Positions 26,668 to 41,359 of a stretch of 64,000 bases of DNA are shown here, piece by piece. This stretch comes from Deltaproteobacteria bacterium (lineage in GTDB: Bacteria > Myxococcota > Kuafuiibacteriia > Kuafuiibacteriales > Kuafuiibacteriaceae), in contig JADJBV010000001.1 of the NCBI GenBank assembly GCA_016703535.1, forward strand, positions 6,382,270-6,446,269, written 5' to 3'. The position numbers were made by a program, and so were the translations under genes. Position 1 is the stretch's first letter, and the number at the start of each line of letters is the position of its first letter. Under the pieces are notes generated by a model. It was not told where the DNA came from, did no database searches, and was given only the letters and a program-made list of their open reading frames with translations.

Positions 26668-27969
26668 CTATGGCCGAGCAGGCGCCCAGGCGAGGCCGTA
26701 AGGCAGGGCACCGTGGACCCCAAAGGCCGCCCGCACCCGCTGGTTGCCGTCCAAAAACAGGACCCGGTGGGCCTCGTCGAGCTCGGGCCACTCCATGCGT
26801 TCGAGCTGGTTGTCCAACACGTTCGGCGGAACGGCGTCGGTCCGAGCCCGGTTGCGTCGGTGGTAGTCGGCGAGGTCCAGGTGAAAGACCACCAAGGTGA
26901 CCAAAGTGCCGTAGTCGAAGCCCAAACCAGCGACCCGGGTCCGGAAGTCCTGGCGCAAGCTGGTGGCGTCCCACACCACCGGCCGTTGTTTTCGCAAGCT
27001 GGCTTTCAATCGCTCTCTGCCTTCGGCGAGGACCCGATCGTTGGCGCCCTGATCACCTCGGTCCGAGCCGAGTTCTTCCCGCAGATCGTCGAGAGAGAGG
27101 TGATCGAAGCCGGCCAGGTGTTTTTGCGCGAAGGTGGTCTTGCCCGAGCCGCTGGGGCCAACGGTGATCACCAGATCCGAACGGGCCTCTCGGGCCTGAA
27201 AACTCCGGGCCACCGCCTCTTCTAGGCTGTGGATCTCACCCCGCTCTAAGCTGCGCCGGGCCTCGGACAGCGCAAAATCGATCACTTGATCGCCGTGACC
27301 CGCGAGGGACTCCACCAGCCGCGCCCGCCAGCTCGGGTCCTGCTCGCCGTGCCGAACGAACGCGCCGTAGTCTTCGGCGAAGAGCCGATACAGATCGATC
27401 TTCTCGATGGCCTCGGCCCGATCCCGGCAGGTCCGGCCCCGCATGTCCGCCTGCTCGACCCAATAGAGGAGCTCCGGATCGGCCAGGCGGCTGACCCGCT
27501 GATAGGCCCCGGCGCTCCGCTCCTTCACCACCAAAAACTTGGGCTCGTGGTGATGGCCGACCAAACCCAACAACACCTCCAGGGACGGATACGGCAACTC
27601 CTCCAACAACCGCGGCGCCAAATAGGAACGCCCCGCGGCCTCGTGACCCCGGGCGACGATGCGCTCCACCCCCTTCAGCTCCTGGGGTCGGGTGCAGATC
27701 GGCTTGGCGATGTCGTGGAGCAGGGCCCCCAACACCAAGAGCAATCGGCCCTCCCCTTCCAGGTGGGCGGCCGGCCCCGCGAGGAGTTGGTAGGCCTCGT
27801 CCATCACCATCTGGGTGTGGATGTGCACGTCGCCTTCGGCGTGCCACTCCGGATCTTGCGGCGTCTCTCGAAAGCGCCGCAACAACGGCAGCCGATCGCC
27901 CAGGGCCTCGACGCACTCGTCGAGGTTCGGAGACGCACCCCGACGAATCTCATCAAAGAAGGTCTTCAT
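26668..27969 (-). CDS. HD-Pnk-type RNA/DNA end-healing enzyme (N-terminal HD phosphoesterase + C-terminal P-loop polynucleotide kinase)
   Basis: The ORF track gives 26668..28059. ATG 27969 ('MKTFFDEIRRG') overlaps the RNA ligase stop (ATGA). HD motif 'LGALLHDIAKP' plus 'GHHHEPK'. Walker A 'ITVGPSGSGKTTFAQ' sits in the C-terminal third. Confidence 0.8.
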   Translation of the reverse strand: MKTFFDEIRRGASPNLDECVEALGDRLPLLRRFRETPQDPEWHAEGDVHIHTQMVMDEAYQLLAGPAAHLEGEGRLLLVLGALLHDIAKPICTRPQELKGVERIVARGHEAAGRSYLAPRLLEELPYPSLEVLLGLVGHHHEPKFLVVKERSAGAYQRVSRLADPELLYWVEQADMRGRTCRDRAEAIEKIDLYRLFAEDYGAFVRHGEQDPSWRARLVESLAGHGDQVIDFALSEARRSLERGEIHSLEEAVARSFQAREARSDLVITVGPSGSGKTTFAQKHLAGFDHLSLDDLREELGSDRGDQGANDRVLAEGRERLKASLRKQRPVVWDATSLRQDFRTRVAGLGFDYGTLVTLVVFHLDLADYHRRNRARTDAVPPNVLDNQLERMEWPELDEAHRVLFLDGNQRVRAAFGVHGALPYGLAWAPARP

Positions 27970-28610
27970 GACTTCTTCCCGGGTTCTCGCAGGCCGTTGG
28001 GCGTCACCACCCCGTGCATCCAATGATCGTCGGTCTGAACGTGACCGCGCCGCACCCACTTGGCCACGTGCTCCGAAAAGCGCGCGTACGGGAAGGCGCC
28101 GGCGCTGCGCACCACGTACCCTTCACAACGTTGGAGATCGAGCTTGAGGCTCCGGAGCCGGGCGTCGTCGTAGGGCCCTTCGTAGAGCGTCGGCACCAAC
28201 TCGAGGCCCAGCCGCATGGCCCAAGCCTTGGTCTCGGCCCACGACAAACAAGTGTTGGTCTCATCCCAGATCGAAAAGACAAAGAAGTAGCTGGCCAGAT
28301 CTTCGTACGCCACCGAATGCCGCGCGTAGAGATTTTCGCCGCAGACCCGAAACCCCGCCGGGATCTGGTAGCCGATCTCGCCCTGCAGCCGCTTCAGCCA
28401 ATCCCGGGACGGGTGGTGACGGCCATCCAGCGAGCGGGCGTGGAGCCCATCTTGGTAGAGGGTCGAGTTTTCGCCGTCGAGCTTTTCGGTGACCACCACC
28501 GGGGCCGACGACAAAGCCGCCGGGACCTCGGTGACCAGATCGTCGCTGCTGACCCCGGGAGACCAGGGCAGATGGGGCGTCCTAGGATACTTGAAGCGTT
28601 GGGTCGCCAT
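27966..28610 (-). CDS. ATP-dependent RNA ligase family protein
   Basis: The ORF track gives 27966..28643. The likely start is 'MATQRFKYPRTPHLPWSPG' at 28610. Covalent nucleotidyltransferase motif I is 'TEKLDGEN' (KxDG). Further motifs are 'VCGENLY', 'CEGYVVR' and 'VAKWVR'. Confidence 0.75.
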   Translation of the reverse strand: MATQRFKYPRTPHLPWSPGVSSDDLVTEVPAALSSAPVVVTEKLDGENSTLYQDGLHARSLDGRHHPSRDWLKRLQGEIGYQIPAGFRVCGENLYARHSVAYEDLASYFFVFSIWDETNTCLSWAETKAWAMRLGLELVPTLYEGPYDDARLRSLKLDLQRCEGYVVRSAGAFPYARFSEHVAKWVRRGHVQTDDHWMHGVVTPNGLREPGKKS

Positions 28611-28889
28611 GACCCACCTCCTTTGGCGGAGCCCAAGGCCCACGCCATCCCGCGATAGAGCATCGAGCGCAGAGCGGCTCGAAGGAACCGGGACCGAGGA
28701 GATTACATGGCGGAGGCTCGGAGAGATAAATAGGCTAAGCCAAGGCTCCGAAGGAGGTCAACCAGAGTTGCAGGACTTCAAGCTTCAGCGGACCAGAGAC
28801 CAACGACGACGATGGGATAGCAACCGGGTGGACCAGATCCGAGCGCTGGAAACGGCCAAACCCCCGCAGATCCCGGTGGCCACCAACAC

Positions 28890-29411
28890 CCGCCCTTCGA
28901 CCGGGCAAGGAGCCGCGCCTGCTGCCCGCGGAAGATGGCTTCCACGAAGACCCGCGCCATCGCCGCCAGGCCGTCTGCACGGACCGCCAACAACCCGACC
29001 AACTCCGAAGGCGGAGACAGAACGTACTGCCGAATCGGAACATCGGGGAACACACGCTCCACGAAGTGCGTCGCGACGTCGTCCATCCACCGCGCGCCGC
29101 AGCTCGGGCAGAGGCCGCGCCCTTTGGTCGCTCCGGCCATCCTGGCCTCTCGCGACACTTCCCGCGTCCTGTGGGTCGCACGAAAACGCCAGCGCCCGCT
29201 CCACTTGGCAGTCCGGGCAGCGCAGCCTGACGAAGCCCGCCTCGGGGACACCGCACACCAGGAACCGCTCCACTGCCCGGCCCACGAACTTGGGGATGGG
29301 GACCCCGGCCTCCTTGCTCTGCGCCACTAGCGCCGGCCACCAGCGCGTCACCAGTCGGTGCAGCACGCCCGAGCGCGGATCGCGAGCGGAGTAGCGCCGA
29401 GGACGATCCAC
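28890..29411 (-). mobile_element. IS91-family (rolling-circle Y2) transposase, 5' fragment only, frameshifted
   Basis: Two overlapping track ORFs (28785..29411 and 28778..29251) together read 'RYSARDPRSGVLHRLVTRWWPALV...FLVCGVPEAGFVRLRCPDCQVERALAFSC', then a frameshift, then 'KGRGLCPSCGARWMDDVATHFVERVFPDVPIRQYVLSPPSELVGLLAVRA...FRGQQARLLARSKGG'. This is the IS91 N-terminal zinc-binding domain. Family-like sequence stops at about 28890. Confidence 0.75.
28891..29039. repeat. Direct repeat copy 1 (~149 bp) shared by the two IS91 fragments
   Basis: Hand alignment: 'cgcccttcgaccgggcaaggagccgcgcctgctgcccgcggaagatggcttccacgaagacccgcgccatcgcc...caacaacccgaccaactccgaaggcggagacagaacgtactgccgaatcgga' against 39545..39692. 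They are near-identical except for about 15 substitutions and a 2-nt indel. Confidence 0.8.
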
Positions 29412-29465
29412 GCCAGGCCCGTAGGCCAGCCGCGTGCCCAGCCCCGGTGCTCATGGTTCGGACGA

Positions 29466-29503
29466 GATTCGTCCGGATTTCGCAGGACGTCCGGAATCCG
29501 GAC
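29466..29503. repeat. TCCGGA-rich motif block (gattcgtccggattt ... gtccggaAtccggac palindrome)
   Basis: Read directly. 'gtccggaatccggac' (29489-29503) is a perfect palindrome around a central base. It shares 'gattcgtccgga' with the array at 40312-40380. Confidence 0.6.
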
Positions 29504-29803
29504 GGACGCGGGTTACCGGTCGCGTGTGCAAGGGCGCGGCCTGCGGGCTCGGGAAGACCTGGGTCGGCCCACCGGCCCGCATCGAAAACGCGTGGCGCTG
29601 GCCGCTGATCGACGCGTCGCAGACCGCGCAAACCCACGCTTCGTCTGGGTCGTCGAAGCTGAGGGCCCCGGGCCGCTGCACCGCAGTGCCTCGCCCTGTG
29701 TTCGGCTGCGGCTCGAGGGCGAACATCGCTCGCCCTCGAGTCTACTCGGTTACTCGATCCCGGACAGCGCGCGCTGCGCCCGAGCCATGGCGAAGGGTAG
29801 CCC

Positions 29804-30148
29804 TTAGGGGACGAAGACCTCGACCCGATCGACCGCGCCGAAGGCCATCACCGAGGCTCCGCCCGGCACGTAGATCCGATCACCAATCGCCGCGGCGCCT
29901 GTCCCGTGCCGGCCGGTGGTCATCGGGCTCAAGCTTGACCACCGCTCGGTCTCAAAGCTCCAAGCCTCGACCGCGTCAAAGACCGCGCTGGCGGCGCCGG
30001 TGTTGCCTTCGCCGCCGAAGACGTAGAGCGCCTCGTTGAGGATCGCGGCGGCGGCGCCTCCTCGAGAGGTCGGCATCGGGGGCCCGGCGCTCCAGGTACC
30101 GGCGGTGGGATCGTAGAGGTCGAGCTGAGCGGTGTGCCCCGTGATGGG
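29804..30148 (-). pseudogene. Kelch-repeat protein gene, 3' fragment (5' end deleted at the island junction)
   Basis: Track ORF 29804..30076 reads 'LYVFGGEGNTGAASAVFDAVEAWSFETERWSSLSPMTTGRHGTGAAAIGDRIYVPGGAS'. Manual upstream extension keeps Kelch-like sequence ('GHTAQLDLYDPTAGTWSAGPPMPTSRGG') to about 30145, then 'FRRRPIT' and a stop. No start or N-terminal blades are present. Confidence 0.7.
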
Positions 30149-30217
30149 TCTCCTTCGGAAAAGGTTTCAAACACTTCGCCCGTGACATCGGCCGTCCGCC
30201 TCCTTGAAGTTGGGCTC

Positions 30218-31222
30218 ATGGATCTCAATCCGACTCGCCCCACTTTCGACTTCATCCCGATGGGGCCGGGCGCAGGCCCCTTGACGAGTCCCTCGACTTT
30301 CGACGACTCAAGAAGCATGTACATCGAAATGGTGCGGCAGGTCGTCGAGGAGGCGGTTGCTGTTCATGCGGCCGCGGAGAAGAAGACCATCTCCGATGTT
30401 CTGAAGGAAGTTCGCGAGCACATCGACGCAACAGCGAGGGAACATCAGAAGGACGAACCGGCAATCGACTATCAGAATGCGCTGTGTCGGCTTGGCTACC
30501 TCTACCGCCACGCTCCCGCAAACGCGACGTTGTTCGAGCGCGTCCTTCGTGATTGTCCAGACTTCCTGCTCAAGATTAAAGAACGCAACGGAGCGCGGTT
30601 GCACGTGTGCTCGGTTGGCGGGGGACCTGGCACCGAACTCCTTGGGCTCTCGAAGTTCTTACTCAGGCGGCCCGAGCTTGCGCCGAGCAAGATACAGTTC
30701 ACGGTGTTGGATCGGATCCCGCAATGGGCAGAGACCTGGCAGCGCCTGGCCGATGCCGTCGAGGACCAGTTCAAAAAAGCGCCGACGGGCGCCAAGCCGA
30801 GCATTGCTCCCTCGTTCCTGCCCATGGATGTGTGCGATCCGACCTCATACAAGAGCTACGCCTATCATTTCAGCACGGTCGACATTGTGGTCTTCAACTA
30901 CTTGTTCTCGGAGAACAAGACTCGCTTGGCGGCGGCAGCGGAAGCGGCCCGCCACTTGCTCAACTCCAGCCCGGTGGGTGCTTTGTTCCTATTCATCGAT
31001 CGCCACGAAGCAGACGGACAGCTCACAGAGGCCGTGAGAGCAATGATCCCGACGACTCCTCCTTGCACGGCCAACCTGTTTGGAGGGACGATCGATCGGG
31101 ACGAAGACCGGAAGGCGATGGGCGACATGTTGATGGGAGCTTTGGGCAACCCACGAGTGAAGTTCTTCACGGACAACTACCGTGACCCAACGGCTTTTTG
31201 GACGGCGATTCGGCGCACATGA
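30218..31222 (+). CDS. Class I SAM-dependent methyltransferase-like protein
   Basis: The ORF track gives 30134..31222. The start is placed at ATG 30218 ('MDLNPTRPTF'), just past the Kelch remnant. Motif I is 'LHVCSVGGGPGTELLGL', the post-I acidic residue is in 'FTVLDRI', and 'VDIVVFNYLFSE' follows. GC is lower and A/T-ending codons are more frequent than in the flanks. Confidence 0.65.
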   Translation: MDLNPTRPTFDFIPMGPGAGPLTSPSTFDDSRSMYIEMVRQVVEEAVAVHAAAEKKTISDVLKEVREHIDATAREHQKDEPAIDYQNALCRLGYLYRHAPANATLFERVLRDCPDFLLKIKERNGARLHVCSVGGGPGTELLGLSKFLLRRPELAPSKIQFTVLDRIPQWAETWQRLADAVEDQFKKAPTGAKPSIAPSFLPMDVCDPTSYKSYAYHFSTVDIVVFNYLFSENKTRLAAAAEAARHLLNSSPVGALFLFIDRHEADGQLTEAVRAMIPTTPPCTANLFGGTIDRDEDRKAMGDMLMGALGNPRVKFFTDNYRDPTAFWTAIRRT

Positions 31223-32142
31223 TCATCTCCGCCAGCTACAAGACTGACATCCCTGCGTTCTACGGAACGTGGTTTCGAAATCGCCTTCGTGCCGGGTTTT
31301 GCAAGACCGTCAATCCGCTCAATCGCGATCAGCACTCCACGATTTCACTGAAGCGGTCTGACGTCGAAAGCTACGTCTTCTGGACGAAGGGTCAGGGACC
31401 GTTCTTGCCGGTGCTCGATGAGCTGCATGAGGCTGGCTTCCCGTTCATCGTTCAGTACACGATAAACGGCTACCCTCGGGCTCTTGAAACGCGAGTTAGC
31501 GACTCGGATCGGGCCGTCGAACAAATGCAGGTGGTCTCACGTAGGTTCGGTCCCCGAGTAGCTGTCTGGCGCTACGACACCATCGTGCTCTCGTCATTGA
31601 CCGATTTCGCATTCCATCGAAGGAACTTCGAACGGCTTGCTGAAGCTCTCTCCGGAACAACGGACGAAGTCGTCGTCTCGTTTCTTCAGCTCTACCAGAA
31701 GACGAAGCGCAATCTCGACGAAGCCGGACGCGTGGAAGCGTTTGAATGGTGGGATCCAACGGTGGAAGAGAAGAGGGACCTGCTTTCTGCCCTGGCGCAG
31801 ATCGCTGCTTCAAATCGAATGCGACTCACCATTTGCACGCAACCGGACCTTGTCGTGGCCGGTGTCGGGGAGTCTCGCTGCATTGACGGTGAGCGCCTGA
31901 TGGACTTGGCCGGTGGACGATTCCCGGCGAAGGTCAAAGGCATGCGGGAGGGCTGCGGCTGCTACGAGTCGAAGGACATCGGCGACTACGACACGTGCCC
32001 ACATGGATGTGTCTACTGCTACGCCGTTCGCGATCGAGACCTCGCGCTGAATCGGTTTAAGGCTCACGATCCGGAAGGCGAGTACCTGTTTCCCGTTCAG
32101 CCCCCGAAGCCGGCGAGGCAGCTGCGGTTGTTCGGAGAGTAG
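31219..32142 (+). CDS. DUF1848-family protein (C-terminal Cys cluster, putative Fe-S)
   Basis: ATG 31219 ('MIISASYKTDIPAFYGTWFRNRL', the typical DUF1848 opening) overlaps the methyltransferase stop (ATGA). The C-terminal cluster is 'EGCGCYESKDIGDYDTCPHGCVYCYA'. Confidence 0.7.
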   Translation: MIISASYKTDIPAFYGTWFRNRLRAGFCKTVNPLNRDQHSTISLKRSDVESYVFWTKGQGPFLPVLDELHEAGFPFIVQYTINGYPRALETRVSDSDRAVEQMQVVSRRFGPRVAVWRYDTIVLSSLTDFAFHRRNFERLAEALSGTTDEVVVSFLQLYQKTKRNLDEAGRVEAFEWWDPTVEEKRDLLSALAQIAASNRMRLTICTQPDLVVAGVGESRCIDGERLMDLAGGRFPAKVKGMREGCGCYESKDIGDYDTCPHGCVYCYAVRDRDLALNRFKAHDPEGEYLFPVQPPKPARQLRLFGE

Positions 32143-32217
32143 TGCGGTCGCCCCCACGACCACTCAAGCTGGGTCGAACGCGAGGAGCGTCCTCAGGTGT
32201 GACCGCGGCTGTTACCG

Positions 32218-32307
32218 CCAGGGCGACTTCGAGCGACTTGGGTGGACAGCGTGAGACGCTCACCCTCAATGTTTGCGCGTATTTCCAAGTCGCTTCGGTC
32301 GCCCTGG
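32218..32307. other. Long imperfect inverted repeat in the 530-bp noncoding spacer between convergent DUF1848 and ThiC-like genes (possible bidirectional terminator or structured RNA)
   Basis: Left arm 'ccagggcgacttcgagcgacttgg' (32218-32241). Right arm 'ccaagtcgcttcggtcgccctgg' (32285-32307). The loop contains a nested hairpin 'agcgt-gag-acgct'. Confidence 0.3.
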
Positions 32308-32670
32308 CGCCTTTCCCAAGGTTGAAGTCGCGAGTTCGGTTCTCGTGTCCCGCTCTCGTATACCCCCGAAATCTTAGGTGGTTCGAACGACGCGCAGTCG
32401 CTTCGATCCCCCCATTTCGGTAGCTCCGAACCTCCGAACCCGGTCCTCCAGCGATGGAGCGGGGAGCGGGCGCGCTCCACGCTCGAGAAGTACAAGGGGT
32501 GGCGAGAACGGGATCGGGGAGGCGCAGACGATCGTCGCGGTGGGTGGTGCAAGCTACGTTGCGGCGCGGTTGTCGGCGCAGATTGGTGGGCCGGAGGGCA
32601 AGACGATCCTCGGCATCCGTCTACCCAAGCCCAGAACCTGTCGAGTTTTCGCAGGCCGTCCCGACTCAGA

Positions 32671-33726
32671 CTAAAGCGGACAGGTCGTCCCGCACCGAGA
32701 GCAGCCGGCCGTCTGCTTTCCGTCTACACAGGTTCGGTGTTCTGCTCGCCACTGCACAGCGGCCTCATCGGCCGCCGTCTCGTCTAGATTGTGCAGGTCA
32801 ATAATGTGGGCAGCGACCCGGGCCGCGCGAACCGCCTCCAGCGTGGATTCGAGGCTCGGGATGCCTCCTGTATGCTCCTCGCGCGTCACGGCCGCAAGCA
32901 CGTGGGCTGCTCCGTGAACACCCATCAGAGTGGCGCCGATAGCGGCCGACACATGGTCCTGTCCGTCCGCCGCGTCGGTAGGAATGGGGCCCAAGGGCAT
33001 GACTGGGAAGCCAGCAGGAGCTAGGATCGAAGCCACTCTCAGGATGTCCCGCGGTCGAGCATGACCAGGTGACTCAACAATCACGCTTGTTCCGCTTCGC
33101 ACGAGCTGTGAAGCGAGGTCCAACTGGGCCGCGATCTCTCCTAGTTGCGCTTCATCCAGCGAGTCAAAGATGTTCGCCGAGCGAAAGGACGCCCCGAGGC
33201 TCAGCGTCACGCCCCGGCGAGCTGCCTCCTCTGCCAGCTTCGGCATGATGTCCTGGTAAGCGTTGCCTCCGTCTCCGCGAAGTAGGAGGTCGTTGATGAC
33301 CAATCCGCCCCCTCGGGAAGTCCACGGAACACGTCGCCGACGCGCTAGGCGAACCAGCTCACGAGTCGGGGTCGGATGAATCGTCAGGAGGCCGGCACCT
33401 CGTTCCATCTGCTCGATGGCTCTATTGAGTAAGGCAGAACGATCAATCTGGCCCGATGTCGAGACAGCGGAATACACGGGCAACGTCGCGGCGACAAAGC
33501 CATATGAAACTATGCACTCCAGGAGCGGTTCGTTCGACGCAACAATCGATAGATCGGATACGATATCGGGACCGACTTCCATCTGTGCAAGCGCGTCAAT
33601 TTTTGCTCGCTGGGATCCGAAGTCGCGAATGTGGCTAGAGCCGACCAGGGCCATCACTGACGTTCGAATCCCAGGACCTACCGCGACGCTCGGGAGCGCT
33701 CGCCGCCCTAGCAAGGCAACAGTCAT
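32671..33726 (-). CDS. Minimal ThiC-like radical-SAM enzyme (HMP-P synthase/BzaF superfamily), 351 aa
   Basis: ATG 33726 ('MTVALLGRR') overlaps the stop of the SIR2-SLOG gene (ATGA). ThiC-core motifs occur in order: 'ATLPVYSA', 'GAGLLTIHPT', 'VPWTSRGGG', 'VTLSLGASFRSA', 'VIVESPGHARP', 'PVMPLGPIPTDAADGQDHVSAAIGATL' and 'LAAVTREEHTGGIP'. The C-terminal cluster 'CSRCGTTC' is CX2CX3C, against CX2CX4C in canonical ThiC. Confidence 0.8.
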   Translation of the reverse strand: MTVALLGRRALPSVAVGPGIRTSVMALVGSSHIRDFGSQRAKIDALAQMEVGPDIVSDLSIVASNEPLLECIVSYGFVAATLPVYSAVSTSGQIDRSALLNRAIEQMERGAGLLTIHPTPTRELVRLARRRRVPWTSRGGGLVINDLLLRGDGGNAYQDIMPKLAEEAARRGVTLSLGASFRSANIFDSLDEAQLGEIAAQLDLASQLVRSGTSVIVESPGHARPRDILRVASILAPAGFPVMPLGPIPTDAADGQDHVSAAIGATLMGVHGAAHVLAAVTREEHTGGIPSLESTLEAVRAARVAAHIIDLHNLDETAADEAAVQWRAEHRTCVDGKQTAGCSRCGTTCPL

Positions 33727-35096
33727 TTGAGGCTCGCTTCCACGCACCGAACCACGTCGGCAGCGCTGACACGGCCACTTCTCGCCTTTTCTAAGTAGGC
33801 TGGATCGATTTTCTGGAGCAGCCCGGCTACGCCCGGCTCATCGAGTTGCAGCGCGGCCAGACCCTTGCGTTGGATTGGCACAGGAACGATTTGGCACCGA
33901 TGGGCGCGCGCAACCTCCAGTTCCGCGGCCGTGCCCATGCCTCCATCAAACACAACCATCGTCCTGGCGGCGGCAAAGAGGCCTCCACGGTATCGCTTGA
34001 GATCGTCGAGGAGTGACCTGTCGTTTGAAAATGCAGGCCTTATTGCATAAGGATTCGGAAAAATCCTAATGCGCTGACGCAGGTCGGTTTGTCTTCGAAG
34101 GCAAGCATCGCCGAAAGCGTTGACGGCATGGCGGCCAATACCCTCGGACTGGCCGTCCAGAAGCACAATCGCCGGATCGATTTCGGAGAGCTTTGCTCCC
34201 ACCAGTGCCGCAAGGTCAGTCGCACGACGAGCAGCCTTATGCCCACCACTTACGAACACGGCCCGGTCCCGAGCTCGGAGGGCTAGATTGTCGAATACGT
34301 GCTGGATTTCATCGTATCCTTGGACGATCGCACAACGAATTCCAACCCGCATGAGATCCTCGGTCCAGAGTGCCTGGCGCTTCGCGTCTTCAGCACTGCT
34401 GGCTACCTTAAGCAGCATAAAATGTTCGCGAGTCGCGCGTTTGGCCAACCTCCTTGCTTGAACCAGCGCGGTTGAGATGCTGGAATCCCGATAGCCATAG
34501 CCAGCAAACAGGAAAGTTTTGTGGAGCAAGTCGTGCTGGAGGCGCTGCACAAAACTGGGCCGACGAGCCGCAAATTCCTCATAGTCGTCGGTCGTGATGA
34601 TGAGGTCGTTGGGCGAGCTTCGCTCGATGCATCCATGCACCTTCAGTATTTCAAAGTCATCAGCGAGGACATCCTGCGTAAAGTCTTGATCGTCAATCCG
34701 CACGACAACCCTCCGGTGTGCCATCGAGTCCTCAAGAAGACGATCGAAATTTGTGGTCCAGACGGTATCAATCGGAGTGAGCCGCAGGGCGGCGTGGTAG
34801 GAGTTTGGAAGAAGTCCGCGATTTAGCTTCGCTCTAAATGCCGCGACCAGGGGACCACGATTGCCCTTGTCGGCATTTACCAAATGCTGTGCGATCAACG
34901 GTAAGTCGTCGGTCTCCTTCAGGTCCAACCCGATCCGCCTCGCGTGCGGCTTCAATAGACCAAGCCAACTTGGCGCATTCGACTTGGCGGATATCCCGGA
35001 TCCCAAAAAGTACGCGCCCACACCGGCCGCGATTGCCTGAGCCATCCCATCAACCACGTAGGAGAGATCGACTCCAACCGACTTTGGTTCAGCCAT
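33723..35096 (-). CDS. ThsA-type SIR2-SLOG protein (Thoeris effector-like NADase architecture)
   Basis: The ORF track gives 33723..35132. ATG 35096 has a GGGAGA Shine-Dalgarno-like element about 10 nt upstream. SIR2_2-type motifs are 'AYFLGSGISAKSNAPSWLGLL', 'VWTTNFDRLLE' (catalytic Asn position) and 'EILKVHGC' (catalytic His position). The C-terminal SLOG/LOG-like Rossmann shows 'AVFVSGGHKAARR' and 'MVVFDGGMGTAAELEVA' (GGxGTxxE). Confidence 0.8.
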   Translation of the reverse strand: MAEPKSVGVDLSYVVDGMAQAIAAGVGAYFLGSGISAKSNAPSWLGLLKPHARRIGLDLKETDDLPLIAQHLVNADKGNRGPLVAAFRAKLNRGLLPNSYHAALRLTPIDTVWTTNFDRLLEDSMAHRRVVVRIDDQDFTQDVLADDFEILKVHGCIERSSPNDLIITTDDYEEFAARRPSFVQRLQHDLLHKTFLFAGYGYRDSSISTALVQARRLAKRATREHFMLLKVASSAEDAKRQALWTEDLMRVGIRCAIVQGYDEIQHVFDNLALRARDRAVFVSGGHKAARRATDLAALVGAKLSEIDPAIVLLDGQSEGIGRHAVNAFGDACLRRQTDLRQRIRIFPNPYAIRPAFSNDRSLLDDLKRYRGGLFAAARTMVVFDGGMGTAAELEVARAHRCQIVPVPIQRKGLAALQLDEPGVAGLLQKIDPAYLEKARSGRVSAADVVRCVEASLK

Positions 35097-35216
35097 TCCG
35101 TTTCGTCTCCCTCGCTGTTTGCGCCGGCTCATTGAACGTGACCGCCGTCTCCGTCCGCCCCATGCCTCTTCTGTTCAAACAGGCGCGACGAAATCTTAAA
35201 AGCAAGCGGTCACACA

Positions 35217-36050
35217 TCAAGTCGCAGTGCCAAAAAGCCCCAGTTGTTTCTCGGGAGGAATCGGGAGGACGCCGACGATCACCCACGGGTTGGGAGCGAC
35301 GAAATGGAACTGCTGCGTTGTTCCGAGGAAAAAGTGGAGATCGGTCTGCAGGAACTCGTCGAAGTACTTCTTGTGCACCTTGGCCAAGGCCGTTGGCTCG
35401 TCACCATTTGCGCGCCTGAGGCAGTTCCAGTAGAGCGCCCCTGCCTCCCAATCGAGCACTTGAAGATCGCTCTGCCGCCCTGCAGCGTCTTCGAACCGGT
35501 ACGTGAAACTATAGGGCAGCTTGTCGATGACCTTGAATGTCTCGCGCCAAGTGTTGTCCGCAAAGAGGTCATACTGCTTTGTCGCCTCGCGCATCTGCTT
35601 GACCCGCTCGGGGTCCCAAACACGCTCTTCGACTTCGGAGTAGAAATCCAGAATCTTTGATGGCCTGAACACTGCGAGTGACGCCGTGTTCGCTTTCGCA
35701 CTTGCGATCAAATCGTCTAAACGGTCGTAGACGCGAGCGGTTTCCAACAGGATACGCCTCCGTGCACCCCAATTGTTGCTAGTGTCGATGTGATCGACCG
35801 CGATCAGCTCGTGCTCATCAATTGGACGGAAGGTCTCCGGTCTCGGGTCGGATGGATTGCGAGCAAGGCGACACTCGAGCCAATCATACTTGTGGTACTG
35901 CTCTTTCTGATCCAGGCGCCGGAACGGAACCGGGTAGATGCGGACCCACGACCCATCTTCGCGGACTCCAGCAGTGCACACGGTCTCCCCGTACTTCCGG
36001 GACAGCGTTGGGTAGGTCTTGACCGTGATCAGGACACGCTCTTTGTTCAT
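35217..36050 (-). CDS. Hypothetical protein, 277 aa (no family recognised)
   Basis: Clean ORF with non-repetitive, balanced composition ('MNKERVLITVKTYPTLSRKYGETVCTAGVREDGSWVRIYPVPF...'). A GAGG sits 4-7 nt upstream of the ATG, inside the end of the preceding gene. The gap to the DUF488 gene is 6 nt. Confidence 0.65.
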   Translation of the reverse strand: MNKERVLITVKTYPTLSRKYGETVCTAGVREDGSWVRIYPVPFRRLDQKEQYHKYDWLECRLARNPSDPRPETFRPIDEHELIAVDHIDTSNNWGARRRILLETARVYDRLDDLIASAKANTASLAVFRPSKILDFYSEVEERVWDPERVKQMREATKQYDLFADNTWRETFKVIDKLPYSFTYRFEDAAGRQSDLQVLDWEAGALYWNCLRRANGDEPTALAKVHKKYFDEFLQTDLHFFLGTTQQFHFVAPNPWVIVGVLPIPPEKQLGLFGTAT

Positions 36051-36056
36051 CTCGCC

Positions 36057-36989
36057 TCAAAGGTCCGTCGCGTGAAGGTCCTTTCCGAATTGTCGTTCCA
36101 GCGCCTCGGCGACGCAATGTCGGTGACACTGGGCCGGTAGGTGTTCGTAGCAAGTAAGGGCGACGCGGTCACCCGCACGGAACCAATCGCGCAGCTTCTT
36201 CAGGGCGCTGGTCTGCTTCGGTAACCAGTCGCGCACATACTCCCTGAAGAGCGCGTCGTAATCGGCTTGGGTATCAAGACTCTGGCGCTTCTCGGACGCG
36301 ATGCCGAGTTCGGGAAGGTGCTCGTAGCGAATCCCGACCGCGTCGCAACCTCGTGCGAGGCTGTTCTTGGAGAAGCCATATTTGCGGCTGATCGGGTTGC
36401 GGCGGACATCGCACAAAATCGTGGTGCCGTTCTTCAGGAGGAGGTTGAGGTAGGTATCAAGCGAATGACCTTCGTAGCCAATCGTCTGAACTGACGCCCG
36501 TTTTTGATCGACTCGAAGGGCAGCTATCTGCTTGAGCGCTATCGCGTCCCCTTTCAGGACGCGGGCAGCGATCTCACTTCGGGTGGCGAAGTACGGAAAT
36601 CTCCGATACGTGTCGGCAACGAGCTCGTCACCTCGCAATTTTTGGTATCGACGCGCAAACGCCGCCATCTGCATGTCGATCGTGCGACCGATGACGCCGC
36701 GGCCTTCGTCAGTGAGCTGCCAGGTGCTCTCGTCGTTCACTAGCAGGCCGCGCTCAACGAGCTTTCGTCGATCGGCGTACGACATGAACGAGAAGGCTCC
36801 GAACTTGTGCGGGACAAAGTCGTAGGGCGCTTCGGACGGGGACTCTTGGCAGTACAGGAAGAGCAGCTTTTGGAAGTCCAGCTTGCTCGCTTGGCCACCG
36901 AGAGCGTCGAGCAGCTGCAAGAGCTGCCGCTGACGAGCGGGCAGCGTCGTCGCGGTCTTCTCCAATGGTCGGGCCCGAGCAGCGGTCAT
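36057..36989 (-). CDS. Two-domain protein: N-terminal helical/wHTH-like domain + C-terminal DUF488 (YeaO-like) domain
   Basis: The ORF track gives 36057..37304. The start is placed at ATG 36989 ('MTAARARPLEK'). The DUF488 part reads 'VQTIGYEGHSLDTYLNLLLKNGTTILCDVRRNPISRKYGFSK...IRYEHLPELG...VALTCYEHLPAQCHRHCVAEAL'. The N-terminal part reads 'KLDFQKLLFLYCQE...YDFVPHKFGAFSF...LVERGLLVNDESTWQLTDEG'. Confidence 0.7.
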   Translation of the reverse strand: MTAARARPLEKTATTLPARQRQLLQLLDALGGQASKLDFQKLLFLYCQESPSEAPYDFVPHKFGAFSFMSYADRRKLVERGLLVNDESTWQLTDEGRGVIGRTIDMQMAAFARRYQKLRGDELVADTYRRFPYFATRSEIAARVLKGDAIALKQIAALRVDQKRASVQTIGYEGHSLDTYLNLLLKNGTTILCDVRRNPISRKYGFSKNSLARGCDAVGIRYEHLPELGIASEKRQSLDTQADYDALFREYVRDWLPKQTSALKKLRDWFRAGDRVALTCYEHLPAQCHRHCVAEALERQFGKDLHATDL

Positions 36990-37150
36990 CAACGTTTCCC
37001 TTGGCGCTTGAGTTTGGGGGAAGCGGTGCGAGATGCTCGGCGATCTCGGGCATCTCGGTCGACCCTCACCCTGCCGAACCCTACCAGCGCGATCCGCTGG
37101 AAACAACTGGGCAATCGAGACGGGAGACACAGGCCAAGCTTCGATCGCAA

Positions 37151-37804
37151 TCAATCTGCAGCGTGAGGCGGTGGGTTCGCAGCGACTTGCCGGTGCTGTG
37201 CCTCGCGGATGCTCACCAGGCTCCGCCGGATGCAGGCGACCTCGCGCTCCCGGACGATTCGCGTCAGTTCGTCCGCGCGGTCGGGAAACTGTTGCGCTAT
37301 CCAAACAGCCCCATTCTCCCAGGCCCCGAGCTCCCGTGCCAGATCGATGGGAGCCGTGCGCACCGCTTCCCGTAGGTCGACGAAGCTTGCAGCAAGGTCT
37401 GGATGAACTCGTTCAAGCTCAGACCAGGCGGCGTCAAAGGTCCGCGCGCCTTGATGTGCCGGCTTGAATCCTTGAAGGAGGTGGCCAAACTCGTGGAGCA
37501 GGTCCGCGATGATCTCCTGTGCACCTGAGGGCGGGGCGGCGTGAAGGTAGATCTTGCTCTGGTCCCACGACACCTTGCTCGTGGCACGAGGGTCCTTGAA
37601 AGGCCGCATCGACCAAACTTGTGCTCGCCAGCTCCGAGGATCCCAGATTCCAGCTGCCGCAAGCTCCGCGTCGCTGACATCCGCAGATTTCCGTTCTCCG
37701 ACGACTTCGATTTCACGTTGGAGGGTGGTTAGCTCAGCCTCGAAGCGCTGGAGGTCGGGGACGTTCTCGAACAGCCTGTTTCGAATCTCGGCGGACGTGG
37801 CCAT
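37151..37804 (-). CDS. Hypothetical protein with HExxH zinc-metallopeptidase-like motif
   Basis: 217 aa. 'IIADLLHEFGHLLQG' contains HEFGH. No signal peptide is present. Its GC is closer to the host than the rest of the island. Confidence 0.5.
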   Translation of the reverse strand: MATSAEIRNRLFENVPDLQRFEAELTTLQREIEVVGERKSADVSDAELAAAGIWDPRSWRAQVWSMRPFKDPRATSKVSWDQSKIYLHAAPPSGAQEIIADLLHEFGHLLQGFKPAHQGARTFDAAWSELERVHPDLAASFVDLREAVRTAPIDLARELGAWENGAVWIAQQFPDRADELTRIVREREVACIRRSLVSIREAQHRQVAANPPPHAAD

Positions 37805-37871
37805 TGGAGCATTCTAGAGCCCCTAAGGCGGTGGTGCCCAGGCCGGAATCGAATCGCTTGTCCGGTTTGGG

Positions 37872-38438
37872 TCACCTGCAAGCGCGAGCGGTAGCTGGTT
37901 CCTTGAGAAGATCGTCGCGCCGCTGCTTGGCGATCGGCGTCCATTTCGCCAAAAAGCCGGGTAGGTCTTCGTCAAGAAGGACATCAATGCCGACTGAGGA
38001 TGCTCCAATCCCGGCCAACTCGTTCGTGACGCGCGCTGACGCCGAATTTAAAGCCGCTCGCTTGGTTGAGTTCATCTTCGTGACAGTCTTTCCCCACGGT
38101 TCTCCGTTCGGTCCGACCTGGAACAACACAGTCGCCAACACTGGAGCGCCGAGTCGCGCCATGACCGACAGGCTAGCCGCGTCTTTCACAAGACTCGTCG
38201 TCACACCAACCCCTTCAACCTCGAATGCGGCAACCGGGATCCACAACGGAGATTCGGCAGTCGCGCCTCTCAACGCCCAGATCACGTCAATCGCGTAGTT
38301 CCTATCAGTCCCGAACACGTTGAACTCAGGGACGGCATGAAGGTCAAGGTCGACGCCTGCCTGGCAGAGTCGAGCGCAAACCTCGTGCTTCGACATCGCA
38401 AGTTCGCTCAATCCCGCATGTTGACCGAGCGCGTTCAT
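37872..38438 (-). CDS. Hypothetical protein, 188 aa, possible PD-(D/E)xK nuclease-like core
   Basis: Only the 3' 188 codons of track ORF 37872..39263 look protein-like ('MNALGQHAGLSELAMSKHEV...YAIDVIWALRG...PVAAFEVEGVGVTTSLVKD...'). The upstream part of the ORF is Arg/Pro/Ser junk overlapping the IS91 fragment. The D...E-x-E pattern is only suggestive. Confidence 0.45.
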   Translation of the reverse strand: MNALGQHAGLSELAMSKHEVCARLCQAGVDLDLHAVPEFNVFGTDRNYAIDVIWALRGATAESPLWIPVAAFEVEGVGVTTSLVKDAASLSVMARLGAPVLATVLFQVGPNGEPWGKTVTKMNSTKRAALNSASARVTNELAGIGASSVGIDVLLDEDLPGFLAKWTPIAKQRRDDLLKEPATARACR

Positions 38439-38715
38439 CGCTAATGAAGGAGAGCATCCCTCGACCGGTGCAGAGGAAGCAACGGGCCAGAGGCTGGGGC
38501 GAATAGGAAACTCAAGGGTGGTTGCCGGGGCCACCTCCGCTTGGATCGAGCCGCCATATAGGGATACCTCCCCTGGATGGCAGGACCTACTTGAACGCCG
38601 GTGAGGGGTCGAATGGGGGTCTGTGGTGGGGTTGAGGGGCGCTTCCTGGGGCGCAGGACGAGCCTCGGCCTCGCGAGGATGCTCGCCTTCAAGGCCCGGG
38701 GCGGAGCTGTGGTGC

Positions 38716-39692
38716 TCAGTTCGCGAGTGGGAGAGCTTGTTGCGGCCCGGGCGGGCCGGTGCTCTCCACCGGCACGAACTGGTTTCGACGCAAGGTCCTG
38801 GGGCAGCGGGGGCAGGAATGGCCGTTGACCTCGTAGACGCGGGCCAAGAGCTTCGCCCACGCTTCGCGATACGGCACTGGCGTTGCCGGCTCGAACTTCC
38901 GAGCCCCGAACCACGCGCCTTGCACCGCCACCCAGCCTGCTGGCACCACCTGCGGTCGAAGCCGCGCGGCCGGCGCCAGCACCCCGAAGGCGCGGATCTG
39001 ATGCTGCCGCGGGGGAGGCACCAGCCAGGCCAGGCGCCGGAGCAACGAGAGCGGATGCAGCAGCAGCTCCTGCTGCGTGGTGCGCGTCGGGCGGCGGAGC
39101 GTGAACCGCGCCTGCGCCTCGTCGATGAGCTCGAGCTGGGCCTCCGCGAACGGCGGCCGGGCGGCGTAGCGCACGAGCTGGGCGCGACCGGCGCGGTCGT
39201 CGGCGCCGACCCGCACGCTCGCGTTGACCTCGAAGCGACCTCGGAGCTTCTTCGGCTCCACACTGACGATCCCTACGGCGCACGGGCCGCCGTTGGCCAC
39301 CACGGGTCGTCGGGCCGGCCCTCGGCGCCCTCCTCGAGATACCCATGGCGACGCAGCCACCCCAAAAACCGAAGCTCCACCTCGTCCTCGAGGGCCCCAC
39401 GCTCTCCGGCCGAGGGGCCTTGGTCCTGGCGGAATTCTAGCGTGCCGACGTCCTCCTCCAAGTAGCCGCCGTCGAGCACCCGCACGTGCAGGTGCGGATA
39501 GACCGAAAGCGTCTTCGTGAACCGCTGCACGAACGCCACCGCCCCGCCCTTCGACCGGGCAAGGGGCCGCGCTGCTGCCCGCGGAAGATGGCTTCTACGA
39601 AGACCCGCGCCATCGCCTCCTGGGCGTCGGCACGGGCCGCCAACAACCCGACCAACTCCGAAGGCGGCGACAGAACGTACTACCGAATCGGA
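38716..39692 (-). mobile_element. IS91-family transposase, 3' fragment (catalytic/C-terminal part), multiply frameshifted and lacking the N-terminal zinc-binding domain
   Basis: The pieces from track ORFs 39437..39655, 39273..39743 and 38716..39360 read 'LVGLLAARADAQEAMARVFVEAIFRGQQ', 'ARSKGGAVAFVQRFTKTLSVYPHLHVRVLDGGY...' and 'VRYAARPPFAEAQLELIDE...LLHPLSLLRRLAWLVPPPRQHQIRAFGVLAPAA...WAKLLARVYEVNGHSCPRCP...'. At 39692 the fragment is fused to an unrelated 54-codon ORF start (39693-39852, 'MSKTKRIKRDRPPV...'). Confidence 0.75.
39545..39692. repeat. Direct repeat copy 2 (~148 bp) matching 28891..29039
   Basis: See copy 1. Same orientation, roughly 90 percent identity by hand alignment. Confidence 0.8.
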
Positions 39693-39940
39693 GGTAGGCG
39701 TCGATCTCGCCCGCCAGATCCTGGAGCGATCGGCAGGTGCCACGGCGGAGCAGCCGGTCGAGGTGAAAGACGCCGTCCATCAGGCGTCGCCTGCCGGCGA
39801 CTCGGGCGGATACCGGGGGGCGGTCCCGCTTGATTCGCTTCGTCTTGCTCACGCCAAGCTCCCAGCCATCCCTTGGGGGAAGCTCTTGTCATGAGACCCT
39901 GGGGCAGGAGCAATGTCGGGAACCCAGTTCGGTGGCCGAG

Positions 39941-40284
39941 TTGGGTCCAGGTACTCAGGATAGTTGGGCGGGCGCAGGTCCGCGGATCCAAGCGACCCAC
40001 TCCGTAGTGCCTTCGGCGGGTCCGGGGACCTCGACAAAGCGGTCTCGAGTCGGTGCGGGGACCTGCCTCGACCCGAGCTCGGCGTCTATCGACTGGGTTT
40101 TTGGGTCCGCCCAGGCGGCCGAGCCACTGTGGAGTCTGGGTGGAGGATAAAAGTGGAGGGCCGAGGACCCGTCGCGGCGTCTGAATTGAGTCCCGGGACC
40201 CGAAGAAGGCACTGCGGAGTGGCTTCGTTGGGTCCCGGGACCCAGGCCGGATCACCTCGACCCAACCGGGTTGGGTCCGGGGAC
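39941..40284. repeat. Cluster of at least 6 copies of a TTGGGTCC(C/G)GGGAC-like motif, including a perfect 14-bp palindrome gggtcccgggaccc (40230-40243) and cccaaccGggttggg (40261-40275)
   Basis: Motif instances read at about 39941, 40018, 40101, 40188, 40230 and 40271. 'ggggacct(gc)ctcgac' also occurs twice (40024, 40057). No convincing ORF covers the region. Confidence 0.55.
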
Positions 40285-40311
40285 TGCTTAAAACGCTGTG
40301 AGTCGACGGGT

Positions 40312-40380
40312 GTCCGGATTCGTCCGGATTCGTCCGGATTCGTCCGGACGATTTGTCCGGCCGGACGAACGCCGGACGCC
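40312..40380. repeat. Helically phased TCCGGA array: 3 perfect tandem 10-bp units (gtccggattc) followed by the gtccggccggac palindrome and further ccggacg units
   Basis: Read directly: gtccggattc gtccggattc gtccggattc gtccggacgatttgtccggccggacgaacgccggacgcc. The 12-bp perfect palindrome lies at 40355-40366. Confidence 0.75.
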
Positions 40381-40414: not shown

Positions 40415-41359
40415 ATGTCCGGCACGCGGCTTGAAGATGGGTTCGGCATGACCTCGGACACGGAGTCCGAGCTCCAACCTATGAGGAGATTGACCATGTC
40501 GAACGAACTGGTGTCGCCCAGGTACTTCCAACTTCCGCCACTGGACGCCCCGGGGACCGTGGCGATGGCGACGAGCACCTTGGCATCGGCGCCGAAGGCA
40601 GCGCCGCCCGCGGTAAAGAAGGCCCTCAAGAAGGTGGCGTCAACGCTGGCCGAGATGAAGGAGGTGCTGGCGGGCGAGCCGATCGCGATGCCCGACGTGA
40701 GCCGGGCCGCCGACCTGTCCCTCGATCGTTCCTGGGGTGGCCTGAGCGGTCGGATCAGCAGCTACACTTTCCTGCCCGAAGACCTGTACCCCAAGGTGTC
40801 CACCGCGAATGAGTTGATGCGGACCCTGTTCCCCGATGGCTTGAGCTTCCTCAAGTTGCCCTACCGGCAGGAGTGGGCCGAGAGCGAAAGGCGCCTGGAG
40901 CGGATCGAGATGATGGGCTTGGAGGCCAAAATCCACGAGGTCGCTGGGCGTGATCACCTGGAGGAGGTGCGTCGGGCCCACCGGGTGTACGGCGAGGTCT
41001 TGGGCATCACCCGACCGAACCCTCTGGCTCAGGCCCCCGAACGCGCCGAGAAGCTGCGGGCGCTGCGCAAGGCTCTGAACCACTACGTGTTGAATCTGCT
41101 CGCTTGCCTGGACGAGGAAGATCCAGAGACCGAGGAGATGGTCCGGCGCGCCCTCCAGCCCATCGACGAGTTTCGCGCGGCGGCGCCCGGGCGGCGGTCG
41201 GCGAGTGACGACGACGGCCCGGAGACCGAAGTGCCCCCCGTCGCTTCACCCGTGGTGGCTTCACCGCCGCCTGTCGCGGTCGGCGGCGGCGCTGCGCCGA
41301 TCGCTCCCAGCCCGGCTCCGATCCCGGTGCGCTCGACCCCTACGGATGCCCCGAGCTGA
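40415..41359 (+). CDS. Hypothetical protein with Pro/Ala-rich C-terminus
   Basis: 314-aa ORF. The central part is non-repetitive ('LYPKVSTANELMRTLFPDGLSFLKLPYRQEWAESERRLERIEMMGLEAKIHEV'). The true start is uncertain, with internal Met at 'MSNELV'. Confidence 0.5.
   Translation: MSGTRLEDGFGMTSDTESELQPMRRLTMSNELVSPRYFQLPPLDAPGTVAMATSTLASAPKAAPPAVKKALKKVASTLAEMKEVLAGEPIAMPDVSRAADLSLDRSWGGLSGRISSYTFLPEDLYPKVSTANELMRTLFPDGLSFLKLPYRQEWAESERRLERIEMMGLEAKIHEVAGRDHLEEVRRAHRVYGEVLGITRPNPLAQAPERAEKLRALRKALNHYVLNLLACLDEEDPETEEMVRRALQPIDEFRAAAPGRRSASDDDGPETEVPPVASPVVASPPPVAVGGGAAPIAPSPAPIPVRSTPTDAPS

Follow-up and report, generated by a model that had tools for sequence, protein, structure and literature searches.

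In a stretch of 64,000 nucleotides (nt) from a Deltaproteobacteria bacterium (contig JADJBV010000001.1), which is referred to below as the window and in which positions are counted from the first letter, we found an operon of two minus-strand genes encoding a ThsA-like SIR2-SLOG protein and a ThiC-like radical S-adenosylmethionine (SAM) enzyme (Table 1). The two genes co-evolve, and we infer that the pair would be a self-contained and mobile system of abortive infection that resembles Thoeris, with a radical-SAM enzyme in place of the TIR protein as signal maker. The operon lies in a lower-GC island, which an earlier note on this DNA had described as a single block of eight foreign, defence-type genes delivered into a Kelch-repeat gene by an IS91-type element. 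Taken as a whole, the island is of an ordinary kind, unlike the ThsA-like/ThiC-like operon within it, which is directly testable as a two-gene construct.

In the window, the ThsA-like gene lies upstream, with an overlap of 25 nt between the two genes. Members of the subfamily to which the ThiC-like protein belongs have approximately 350 amino acids (aa), and 352 hits below 1e-5 were obtained; the best 120 of these 352 were all at least 52% identical. A locus scan with one genome per species yielded 33 loci carrying the closest relatives of the window ThiC-like protein, with identities of 34-66%. At every locus where a subfamily member and its upstream DNA were available (28/28), a ThsA-like gene was found directly upstream on the same strand. 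The ThsA-like partners at these loci were 36-50% identical to that of the window, and the 28 loci spanned seven phyla, namely Planctomycetota, Myxococcota, Actinomycetota, Pseudomonadota (Alpha-, Beta- and Gammaproteobacteria), Bacillota, Acidobacteriota and Bacteroidota. The junction between the two genes measured -28 to +68 nt in 25 loci, the commonest arrangement being a 4-nt overlap of the ATGA type. Additionally, the pairwise identities of the ThsA-like proteins correlated with those of the ThiC-like proteins (Mantel r = 0.89, a value reached by 0 of 2000 permutations).

The gene content around the pair was variable. No conserved third gene was found, as the largest cluster of neighbours shared across loci comprised three loci and the 127 nearest neighbours fell into 91 Pfam families; thiamin or cobamide genes were likewise not conserved near the pair in the loci and neighbour families examined. 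Several loci carried genes of conflict or mobility: the Bradyrhizobium locus contained a Type ISP restriction enzyme, resolvases and RepB/ParB, the Methylicorpusculum locus contained Type I restriction-modification genes, SLFN_AlbA_2, PIN/RHH genes (a PIN toxin) and four integrases, and the Myxococcus locus contained a STAND NTPase and an HNH protein. By Pfam, no TIR gene was present in the island or within 8-10 kb of the pair in four other annotated loci. The only locus with a TIR gene near the pair was that of Azotobacter beijerinckii (L087, 1557-9077), where TIR_2 and CAP12-PCTIR_TIR proteins are encoded 1.5 kb and 4.3 kb upstream of the pair, together with an integrase fragment. A phmmer search with these two Azotobacter proteins revealed no relative in any other pair locus. 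In three further loci (L004, L024 and L025), the ThsA-like genes were recovered as several tblastn pieces in different frames, where decay or assembly errors are possible.

The ThiC-like protein aligned only to residues 203-524 of CcThiC, and thus lacks the N-terminal domain. Its AlphaFold2 model had a predicted local distance difference test (pLDDT) score of 91 and, upon superposition with AtThiC (4S27), gave a TM-score of 0.85 at a sequence identity of 27%. The C-terminus contains the sequence GCxRCxxxCPL, in which C349, C352 and C356 have the spacing CX2CX3C; these residues and C340 were invariant in a 24-sequence alignment. The corresponding [4Fe-4S] motif of canonical ThiC is spaced CX2CX4C.

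To locate differences in the active site, 29 members of the ThiC-like family were set against 41 canonical ThiC sequences that the scan had also yielded (CcThiC numbering). H313, S333, R334, G335, R377, E413, H417, H455 and H481 were kept in 29 of 29 ThiC-like sequences. In contrast, N219 was replaced by Leu in all 27 sequences covering the site, and in 29 of 29 sequences D374 was replaced by Ala or Thr, Y440 by Met, and C474 by Ala, Ser or Thr, whereas the canonical enzymes keep Asn, Asp, Tyr and Cys at these four positions (Cys in 19/19 and Asn in 37/41). A C474S variant of CcThiC consumes 5-aminoimidazole ribotide (AIR) and yields no 4-amino-5-hydroxymethyl-2-methylpyrimidine phosphate (HMP-P), and N228 and E422 of AtThiC, which correspond to N219 and E413 of CcThiC, hold the 3'- and 2'-hydroxyls of AIR, respectively (PMC11117688). 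The NCBIfam scores of the window protein were 153.6 bits against 410 for ThiC (NF009895), 135 against 460 for TIGR00190, and 118 against a cut-off of 700 for the BzaB model TIGR04386. Because essential residues are replaced and the scores lie far below the ThiC and BzaB cut-offs, we consider the protein to be a ThiC-fold enzyme whose product would be other than HMP-P; it is likely an active radical-SAM enzyme of this fold, and it likely does not make the thiamin pyrimidine. Among the best 120 of the 352 matches, public records name the ThsA-linked family 'phosphomethylpyrimidine synthase ThiC', which, judged by the scores and residues above, is probably a systematic misannotation and could distort predictions of vitamin B1 auxotrophy from genomes and metagenomes. 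No model of PADLOC-DB v2 matched the ThiC-like protein.

A second, more distant ThiC-like clade was found in Lachnoclostridium and Heteroscytonema genomes (L030:8634-11059 and L031:8634-11113), with 34-37% identity; the four positions that are replaced in the first family hold Ser, Thr, Met and Asn here. These genes also overlap an upstream gene by 4 nt; the upstream genes encode partners of approximately 430 aa that are 30% identical to each other, had no Pfam match and were unrelated to ThsA (hhalign probability of 0.4%). By analogy, one enzyme type with different upstream partners would resemble the modularity of signal maker and effector in Thoeris, CBASS and Pycsar, and such partner swapping fits a common small-molecule maker with interchangeable effectors. 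An IS630 transposase gene or a ParB_N gene lies nearby in the second-clade loci.

The ThsA-like protein showed a high similarity to the ThsA effectors of Thoeris. A profile built from 20 partner sequences matched the ThsA structures in the PDB (7UXT, E = 1.5e-74; 6LHX, E = 1.9e-73; also 8BTO), while the match of the window protein to STALD (E = 1e-3) was below threshold. N128 and H166 were invariant in 20 ThsA-like partners; they correspond to N112 and H152 of BcThsA, which have a catalytic role in the SIR2 domain (bioRxiv 10.1101/2022.05.07.491051).

The SLOG domain differs from that of ThsA. In BcThsA, 3' cyclic ADP-ribose (3'cADPR) is contacted by G289, S290, L326, Q359, R371, K388, G399 and E403 (bioRxiv 10.1101/2022.05.07.491051). 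The ThiC-linked proteins contain an invariant G-x-H (usually GSH) where BcThsA and EfThsA have GSA, a GQSxG sequence in the region of L326 where canonical ThsA has GFGLG, and a LOG-type GGxGTxxE (GGMGT, in the region of K388) where EfThsA has GNK...GVMDE; an NPY sequence and an Arg (R382) were also invariant. G289, R371 and E403 seem to have retained equivalents (R382 and E404 for the latter two), and the second half of the BcThsA SLOG domain was left unaligned by HMMER. A profile of the SLOG domain only matched EfThsA with E = 1.2e-3, which was no better than its match to the molybdenum cofactor carrier protein (E = 1.3e-3), and weakly matched plant LOG and CMP N-glycosidase. In LOG enzymes, GGxGTxxE belongs to the active site. 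As judged by these motifs and profile matches, the SLOG pocket is probably a generic ribotide-binding site of the LOG type that is tuned to another ligand.

We propose that, on infection, the ThiC-like enzyme, by means of its [4Fe-4S] cluster and SAM, would turn a ribotide-type substrate into a small molecule other than the thiamin pyrimidine. This molecule would bind to the LOG-type pocket of the SLOG domain and turn on the SIR2 NADase, and the resulting depletion of nicotinamide adenine dinucleotide (NAD+) would halt phage replication. An immune role of the pair is, on this evidence, quite probable. That the island and the pair act as an immune module of this general design also appears rather likely, with somewhat less assurance, and the assignment of the ThiC-like enzyme as the signal maker and the ThsA-like protein as the effector is tentative, with chances that we place a little short of even. 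The furthest-reaching version, which we hold to be on the unlikely side, is that the ThiC-like enzyme would be the first case of a radical-SAM enzyme that makes an immune second messenger, rearranging AIR or a related ribotide into a signal that is read by the SLOG domain and fires SIR2, with related clades feeding other effectors.

Several observations weigh against an immune signalling system of this kind. The immune role rests on guilt by association, neither protein contains an obvious phage-sensing domain, some pair loci sit amid housekeeping genes (thyA/folA, SpoU methylases), and the enrichment of defence genes around the pair was only moderate. The pair was found on no plasmid of the plasmid collection, and the matches in the phage collection were to canonical ThiC only. 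ThiC-type radical-SAM enzymes work slowly and are sensitive to oxygen, properties poorly suited to an alarm signal in aerobes. Equally, two proteins whose translation is so tightly coupled at 1:1 could form a stable enzyme complex or a metabolic channel, and the Azotobacter locus does have a TIR gene 1.5 kb upstream of the pair.

Other roles for the two proteins were weighed against the same data. Prokaryotic viperins are radical-SAM enzymes that make antiviral nucleotides, and the ThiC-like enzyme could likewise be antiviral itself, making a toxic or chain-terminating nucleotide analogue for which the SIR2-SLOG protein supplies the substrate (e.g., ADP-ribose from NAD+) or acts as a regulator. 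Such a role would suit a pocket that is remodelled yet keeps the SRGG ribotide-phosphate motif and the metal ligands, the 1:1 co-translation of the two genes, and a SLOG domain in which the GGxGTxxE motif of the LOG active site is kept. We nevertheless regard it as unlikely, as the invariant SIR2 Asn and His and the whole-protein similarity to ThsA (E = 1e-74) predict that an NADase effector is present anyway, and the unrelated partner in the second ThiC-like clade is more readily understood if the variable output lies with the partner. Dependence on a TIR protein seems highly improbable: here, the ThsA-like protein would be an ordinary type I Thoeris effector requiring a TIR ThsB encoded elsewhere, with the ThiC-like gene as an accessory or regulator. 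The PADLOC ThsA1 match (E = 5.5e-66), the apparent retention of BcThsA R371 and E403 as R382 and E404, and the single locus with a TIR gene 1.5 kb away are in line with it. However, neither the island nor the four other Pfam-annotated loci contain a TIR gene, the Azotobacter TIR proteins have no homologue in any other locus, the SLOG motifs differ from those of 3'cADPR-binding ThsA (GSH for GSA, GQSxG for GFGLG, and GGMGT for GNK...G), and the SLOG profile scores ThsA no better than the molybdenum cofactor carrier protein.

A role outside immunity was also considered, in which the pair would be a sporadic metabolic or salvage module. By analogy with CobB/CobT and BzaF in the synthesis of the cobamide lower ligand, the ThiC-like enzyme would make a heterocyclic base, to which the Sir2-type domain would add ADP-ribose or phosphoribose. 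The ThiC paralogues BzaA, BzaB and BzaF do make benzimidazoles from AIR, and the window protein reaches 118 bits with the BzaB model, although this is far under the cut-off of 700 and no conserved cobamide or thiamin genes lie nearby. The housekeeping surroundings of some loci, the absence of the pair from the plasmid collection and the restriction of phage-collection matches to canonical ThiC would also suit a metabolic module. Against it stand the patchy distribution across seven phyla with variable flanks, the restriction-modification genes, toxin-antitoxin genes or integrases that adjoin several loci, the position of the window pair inside a lower-GC island beside the PADLOC candidate system PDC-M19, and the fact that, in structure, the partner is closest to ThsA proteins of anti-phage systems. 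We therefore consider a metabolic module very improbable and retain the Thoeris-like reading.

To our knowledge, a TIR enzyme makes the signal, derived from ADP-ribose, in every characterised Thoeris system. Searches of the open-access and bioRxiv literature for ThiC with SLOG/SIR2, ThiC with antiphage, and Thoeris with radical SAM or ThiC-like revealed nothing relevant, although subscription papers may describe the pair. If the Thoeris-like reading is true, a widespread, rewired radical-SAM enzyme of the thiamin pathway in the place of TIR would represent new chemistry for bacterial immune signalling, and the ThiC paralogue family would gain a function. The second-messenger version, if true, would add a new signalling family parallel to the TIR, CD-NTase and Pycsar cyclase systems.

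Table 1. Positions of the operon, the other island genes and the flanking remnants in the window.
Feature	Position	Strand	Supporting match or property
Left IS91 remnant	28785..29511	-	Zn_Tnp_IS91 E = 1.8e-5 (28785-29411); upstream end motif GATTCGTCCGGA
Kelch-repeat gene, C-terminal fragment	29804..30150	-	Kelch_1 E = 2.2e-16; cut at island edge
Class I SAM-dependent methyltransferase	30134..31222	+	Methyltransf_34 E = 6e-7, 29.4 bits (cut-off 26)
DUF1848 protein with C-terminal cysteine cluster	31198..32142	+	DUF1848 E = 1.5e-88; PADLOC RTasDUF1848 E = 3e-43
ThiC-like radical-SAM enzyme, 358 aa, downstream gene of the pair	32671..33747	-	ThiC_Rad_SAM PF01964 E = 1.8e-44
ThsA-like SIR2-SLOG putative NADase	33723..35132	-	SIR2_2 E = 1.4e-24; PADLOC ThsA1 E = 5.5e-66
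PDC-M19B (277-aa unknown of the earlier note)	35217..36050	-	PADLOC PDLC04508 E = 1.1e-108
PDC-M19A, winged helix and DUF488	36057..36989	-	PADLOC PDLC04505 E = 7e-100 over residues 123-410; DUF488 E = 1.5e-27
HExxH protein, 217 aa, orphan	37151..37804	-	Codon-position GC 0.72/0.48/0.68, coding-like
PD-(D/E)xK-fold (restriction-endonuclease-like) protein, 188 aa	37872..38438	-	Alpha-beta-beta-beta-alpha-beta core; acidic and lysine residues conserved
Right IS91 remnant	38498..40350	-	Y2_Tnp E = 1.7e-16 and 1e-4 (38716-39360, 39273-39743)

The island that surrounds the operon was clearly distinguished by its composition. The GC content was 59.4% in 30150-38450 and 67.2% in the remainder of the 64-kb window, and the lowest-GC stretch of 8.3 kb in the window begins at 30201. 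Windows of 500 nt ranged from 0.546 to 0.658 in the island and from approximately 0.64 to 0.73 beyond it, with the largest steps near 30280 and 38590. This computed profile confirmed the dip that had been estimated by hand counts in the earlier note. A difference was also evident at the codon level: the GC content at third codon positions (GC3) was 0.61-0.73 in the eight island genes and 0.80-0.88 in 12 flanking genes, with disjoint ranges (Mann-Whitney p = 8e-6). The statement in the same note that codons ending in A or T become common in the island held only in part: it applied to ATT, with an ATT/(ATT+ATC) ratio of 0.35 in the island and 0.04 in the flank, and for TTT (0.34 versus 0.20), whereas the shift for GAA (0.42 versus 0.30) was much smaller than that for ATT, and AAA was barely different (0.22 versus 0.18). 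No tRNA gene was found in the 64-kb window and no integrase was noted among the window open reading frames (ORFs) examined, in agreement with the same note; an Rfam scan of 27-42 kb revealed no RNA family match.

The island carries known and candidate defence genes, with IS91 remnants on both sides. Three of its eight proteins matched PADLOC models of defence or candidate defence (ThsA1, PDC-M19A and PDC-M19B), and its modules turn up again in unrelated genomes or on plasmids, in many cases next to restriction-modification genes and integrases. The aberrant composition, the PADLOC matches and the recurrence of the modules bear out the proposal of a foreign island of the conflict or defence type, and the proposed identities of all eight genes were confirmed or sharpened. 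The view of these genes as one list, however, gave way to four independent modules of two genes, one of which is the ThsA-like/ThiC-like operon. The methyltransferase/DUF1848, PDC-M19 and HExxH/PD-(D/E)xK modules did not accompany the pair in any other genome, and GC3 was 0.61-0.64 in the ThsA-like/ThiC-like module and 0.69-0.73 in the methyltransferase/DUF1848 and PDC-M19 modules. Because the modules do not travel with the pair and differ in GC3, we regard the island as a mosaic, and the data support a horizontally acquired mosaic defence island at approximately 30150-38497, with a truncated Kelch gene on its left and an IS91 remnant on its right.

At the left of the island, the methyltransferase gene, whose true start is likely at approximately 30215, overlaps the DUF1848 gene by 25 nt. 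The PADLOC model matched by the latter, RTasDUF1848, is an accessory model of defence reverse transcriptases. DUF1848 directly followed the methyltransferase homologue in two of the four closest metagenome loci (L092, 5001-6864, and L093, 1048-2334). On the Nostoc plasmid pNLP4 (L091, 3911-5509), the methyltransferase homologue is followed by AlkB, a dealkylating dioxygenase, in place of DUF1848. These arrangements hint that the methyltransferase product may be a substrate for the DUF1848 protein. A gap of 530 nt (32143-32670) separates the convergent DUF1848 and ThiC-like genes; its GC content rises to 0.62-0.66, and its small ORFs had no Pfam match.

On the other side of the operon, the genes for PDC-M19A and PDC-M19B lie on the same strand, 6 nt apart. 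The mechanical ORF of PDC-M19A runs to 37304, yet homology starts at residue 123, and the start is likely the Met at 36989. Homologues of PDC-M19B were found on 23 plasmids of diverse taxa, with a DUF488 protein also annotated under the match in 4 of the 15 listed; no mention of PDC-M19 was found in the open-access and preprint literature searched. The HExxH protein had no Pfam match and was the only member of its kind found among 5.8 billion proteins, and its sole family signal was a sub-threshold match to mod_HExxH (E = 0.0018). For the last gene of the island, a plus-strand ORF at 37804-38298 was considered and rejected, as the 188-aa product of the minus strand has 23 homologous families and folds with high confidence.

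The edges of the island were largely as the earlier note had placed them. On the left, the Kelch frame (29804-30166, minus strand) spans 120 codons, contains C-terminal repeats only, and has a host-like GC3 of 0.84; its homology ends at approximately 30150, where GC drops, so the note was right that the left edge is the point at which this frame loses homology. Since the fragment is the C-terminal end of a minus-strand gene, the missing N-terminal part would be expected to the right. A tblastn search of the whole window for this other half found only a paralogue at 12580-16632. This minus-strand gene encodes a Kelch-repeat protein of 1350 aa, is a high-GC host gene, and is 30-39% identical to the fragment. 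No empty site was recovered, as the short contigs of relatives all break at approximately 40338 of the window. The truncation falls exactly at the compositional edge, but the window holds no other half and an empty site was lacking, so that the proposed insertion into a Kelch gene is a candidate reading.

The left IS91 remnant comprises the zinc-binding N-terminus of the transposase, from residue 1 to approximately 164, after which it runs out of frame; no catalytic domain was found in it. The right remnant contains the Y2_Tnp catalytic and C-terminal parts, which are split over two frames, and has no recognisable N-terminus. The transposase domains are therefore split over two distant remnants, the right one frameshifted, with no intact HUH-Y2 transposase. 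With its downstream end, the right copy borders on the island at approximately 38498, and the gene for the 188-aa protein starts at 38438, in accordance with the earlier claim that an IS91 transposase fragment adjoins the right side; a hairpin is present near 38520, and an unrelated metagenome contig (L089, 8672-9180) matched window positions 38947-38498 with 76% nt identity, spanning the end of an IS91 transposase gene and the sequence beyond it. The upstream part of the right remnant is degenerate and probably ends at the GATTCGTCCGGA motif at 40314-40350. Motifs of the GATTCGTCCGGA type, direct and inverted, lie upstream of both remnants (29466-29511 and 40314-40350). The right remnant probably extends to approximately 40350, because the motif there recurs upstream of the left remnant and the contigs of relatives break at 40338. 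The right-flank gene at 40415-41359 has homologues at 99%, 64% and 52% identity, whose contigs end or diverge at approximately 40338, and the break of the contigs L088 and L090 at this position suggests a repeat boundary there.

The two remnants are in direct orientation, and the sole stretch that they have in common is 151 nt at 93% identity (28889-29039 and 39543-39692). We also considered a single IS91 element split by the island and rejected it: in a minus-strand gene the N-terminal piece would have to lie on the opposite side, and the two pieces have 41 codons in common. Remnants are present on both sides of the island, as the earlier note had stated; since the Kelch fragment separates the left remnant from the island, the bracket takes in this fragment as well. 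Directly to the left of the left remnant, at 26668-28643 (minus strand), a gene with HD and AAA_33 domains (kinase/phosphatase-like) overlaps an RNA ligase gene and resembles an RNA-repair cassette, with a GC3 of 0.80-0.81 at the low end of the flank range. Further to the left (23791-26270, minus strand) are two genes for multihaem c-type cytochromes, which are normal high-GC host genes.

Insertion into the Kelch gene and delivery by IS91 are plausible. The specific route favoured earlier, in which a single event of IS91-type rolling-circle (one-ended) transposition would have carried the whole 8.3-kb island into a Kelch gene that was still intact, appears doubtful. It would account for the direct-orientation remnants that bracket the Kelch fragment and the island, the downstream end of the right copy adjoining the island at approximately 38498, a Kelch frame that ends exactly at the GC step, and the lack of both an integrase and a tRNA gene. 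On the other hand, both copies are defective, the left without a catalytic domain and the right frameshifted and without a recognisable N-terminus, and these dead remnants are 93% identical over just 151 nt. No target-site signature was found at the island, and the missing half of the Kelch gene does not lie across it. In the IS91 model, co-mobilisation is limited to the DNA that lies upstream of tnpA on the ter side, a rule that fits the left copy and not the right. Additionally, the four modules occur separately elsewhere and differ in GC3 (0.61-0.64 versus 0.69-0.73), which suggests stepwise accretion or a composite origin. The earlier proposal of rolling-circle delivery was not established.

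To place the operon and its island among known systems, we compared each with its closest counterparts. Both components of the island PDC-M19 are full-length matches to the PADLOC system (7e-100 and 1e-108) with adjacent genes, and nothing sets this copy apart structurally; the system itself is a bioinformatic candidate only. As in gene capture by IS91/ISCR elements, foreign cargo lies between remnants of the IS91 family, and neither an integrase nor a tRNA gene was seen. The island differs from such captures in that each of the two copies is an inactive fragment, the GTTC/CTTG target and the ori and ter ends were not identified (no reference ends were compared), and the modules that make up its mosaic cargo move independently of one another elsewhere.

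The ThiC-like enzyme shares with ThiC, BzaA, BzaB and BzaF the TIM-barrel radical-SAM fold, the SRGG motif, E413, the metal histidines and the three-cysteine motif at the C-terminus. In contrast to these enzymes, it has a length of approximately 350 aa with no N-terminal domain, a CX2CX3C spacing and replacements at the equivalents of N219, D374, Y440 and C474, and in the loci examined its gene never occurred among thiamin or cobamide genes. Prokaryotic viperins are also radical-SAM enzymes that act on a nucleotide-like substrate within a defence locus; they act alone, whereas the ThiC-like protein belongs to the ThiC-type branch with a C-terminal cluster and has an obligate NADase partner. 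With type I Thoeris, the pair shares the SIR2-SLOG effector architecture, the retained catalytic Asn and His, and a compact mobile operon in defence-rich contexts. Unlike type I Thoeris, the pair has no TIR ThsB partner, its invariable and translationally coupled neighbour is a ThiC-like radical-SAM gene, and its SLOG pocket contains LOG-type and family-specific motifs in place of those that contact 3'cADPR.

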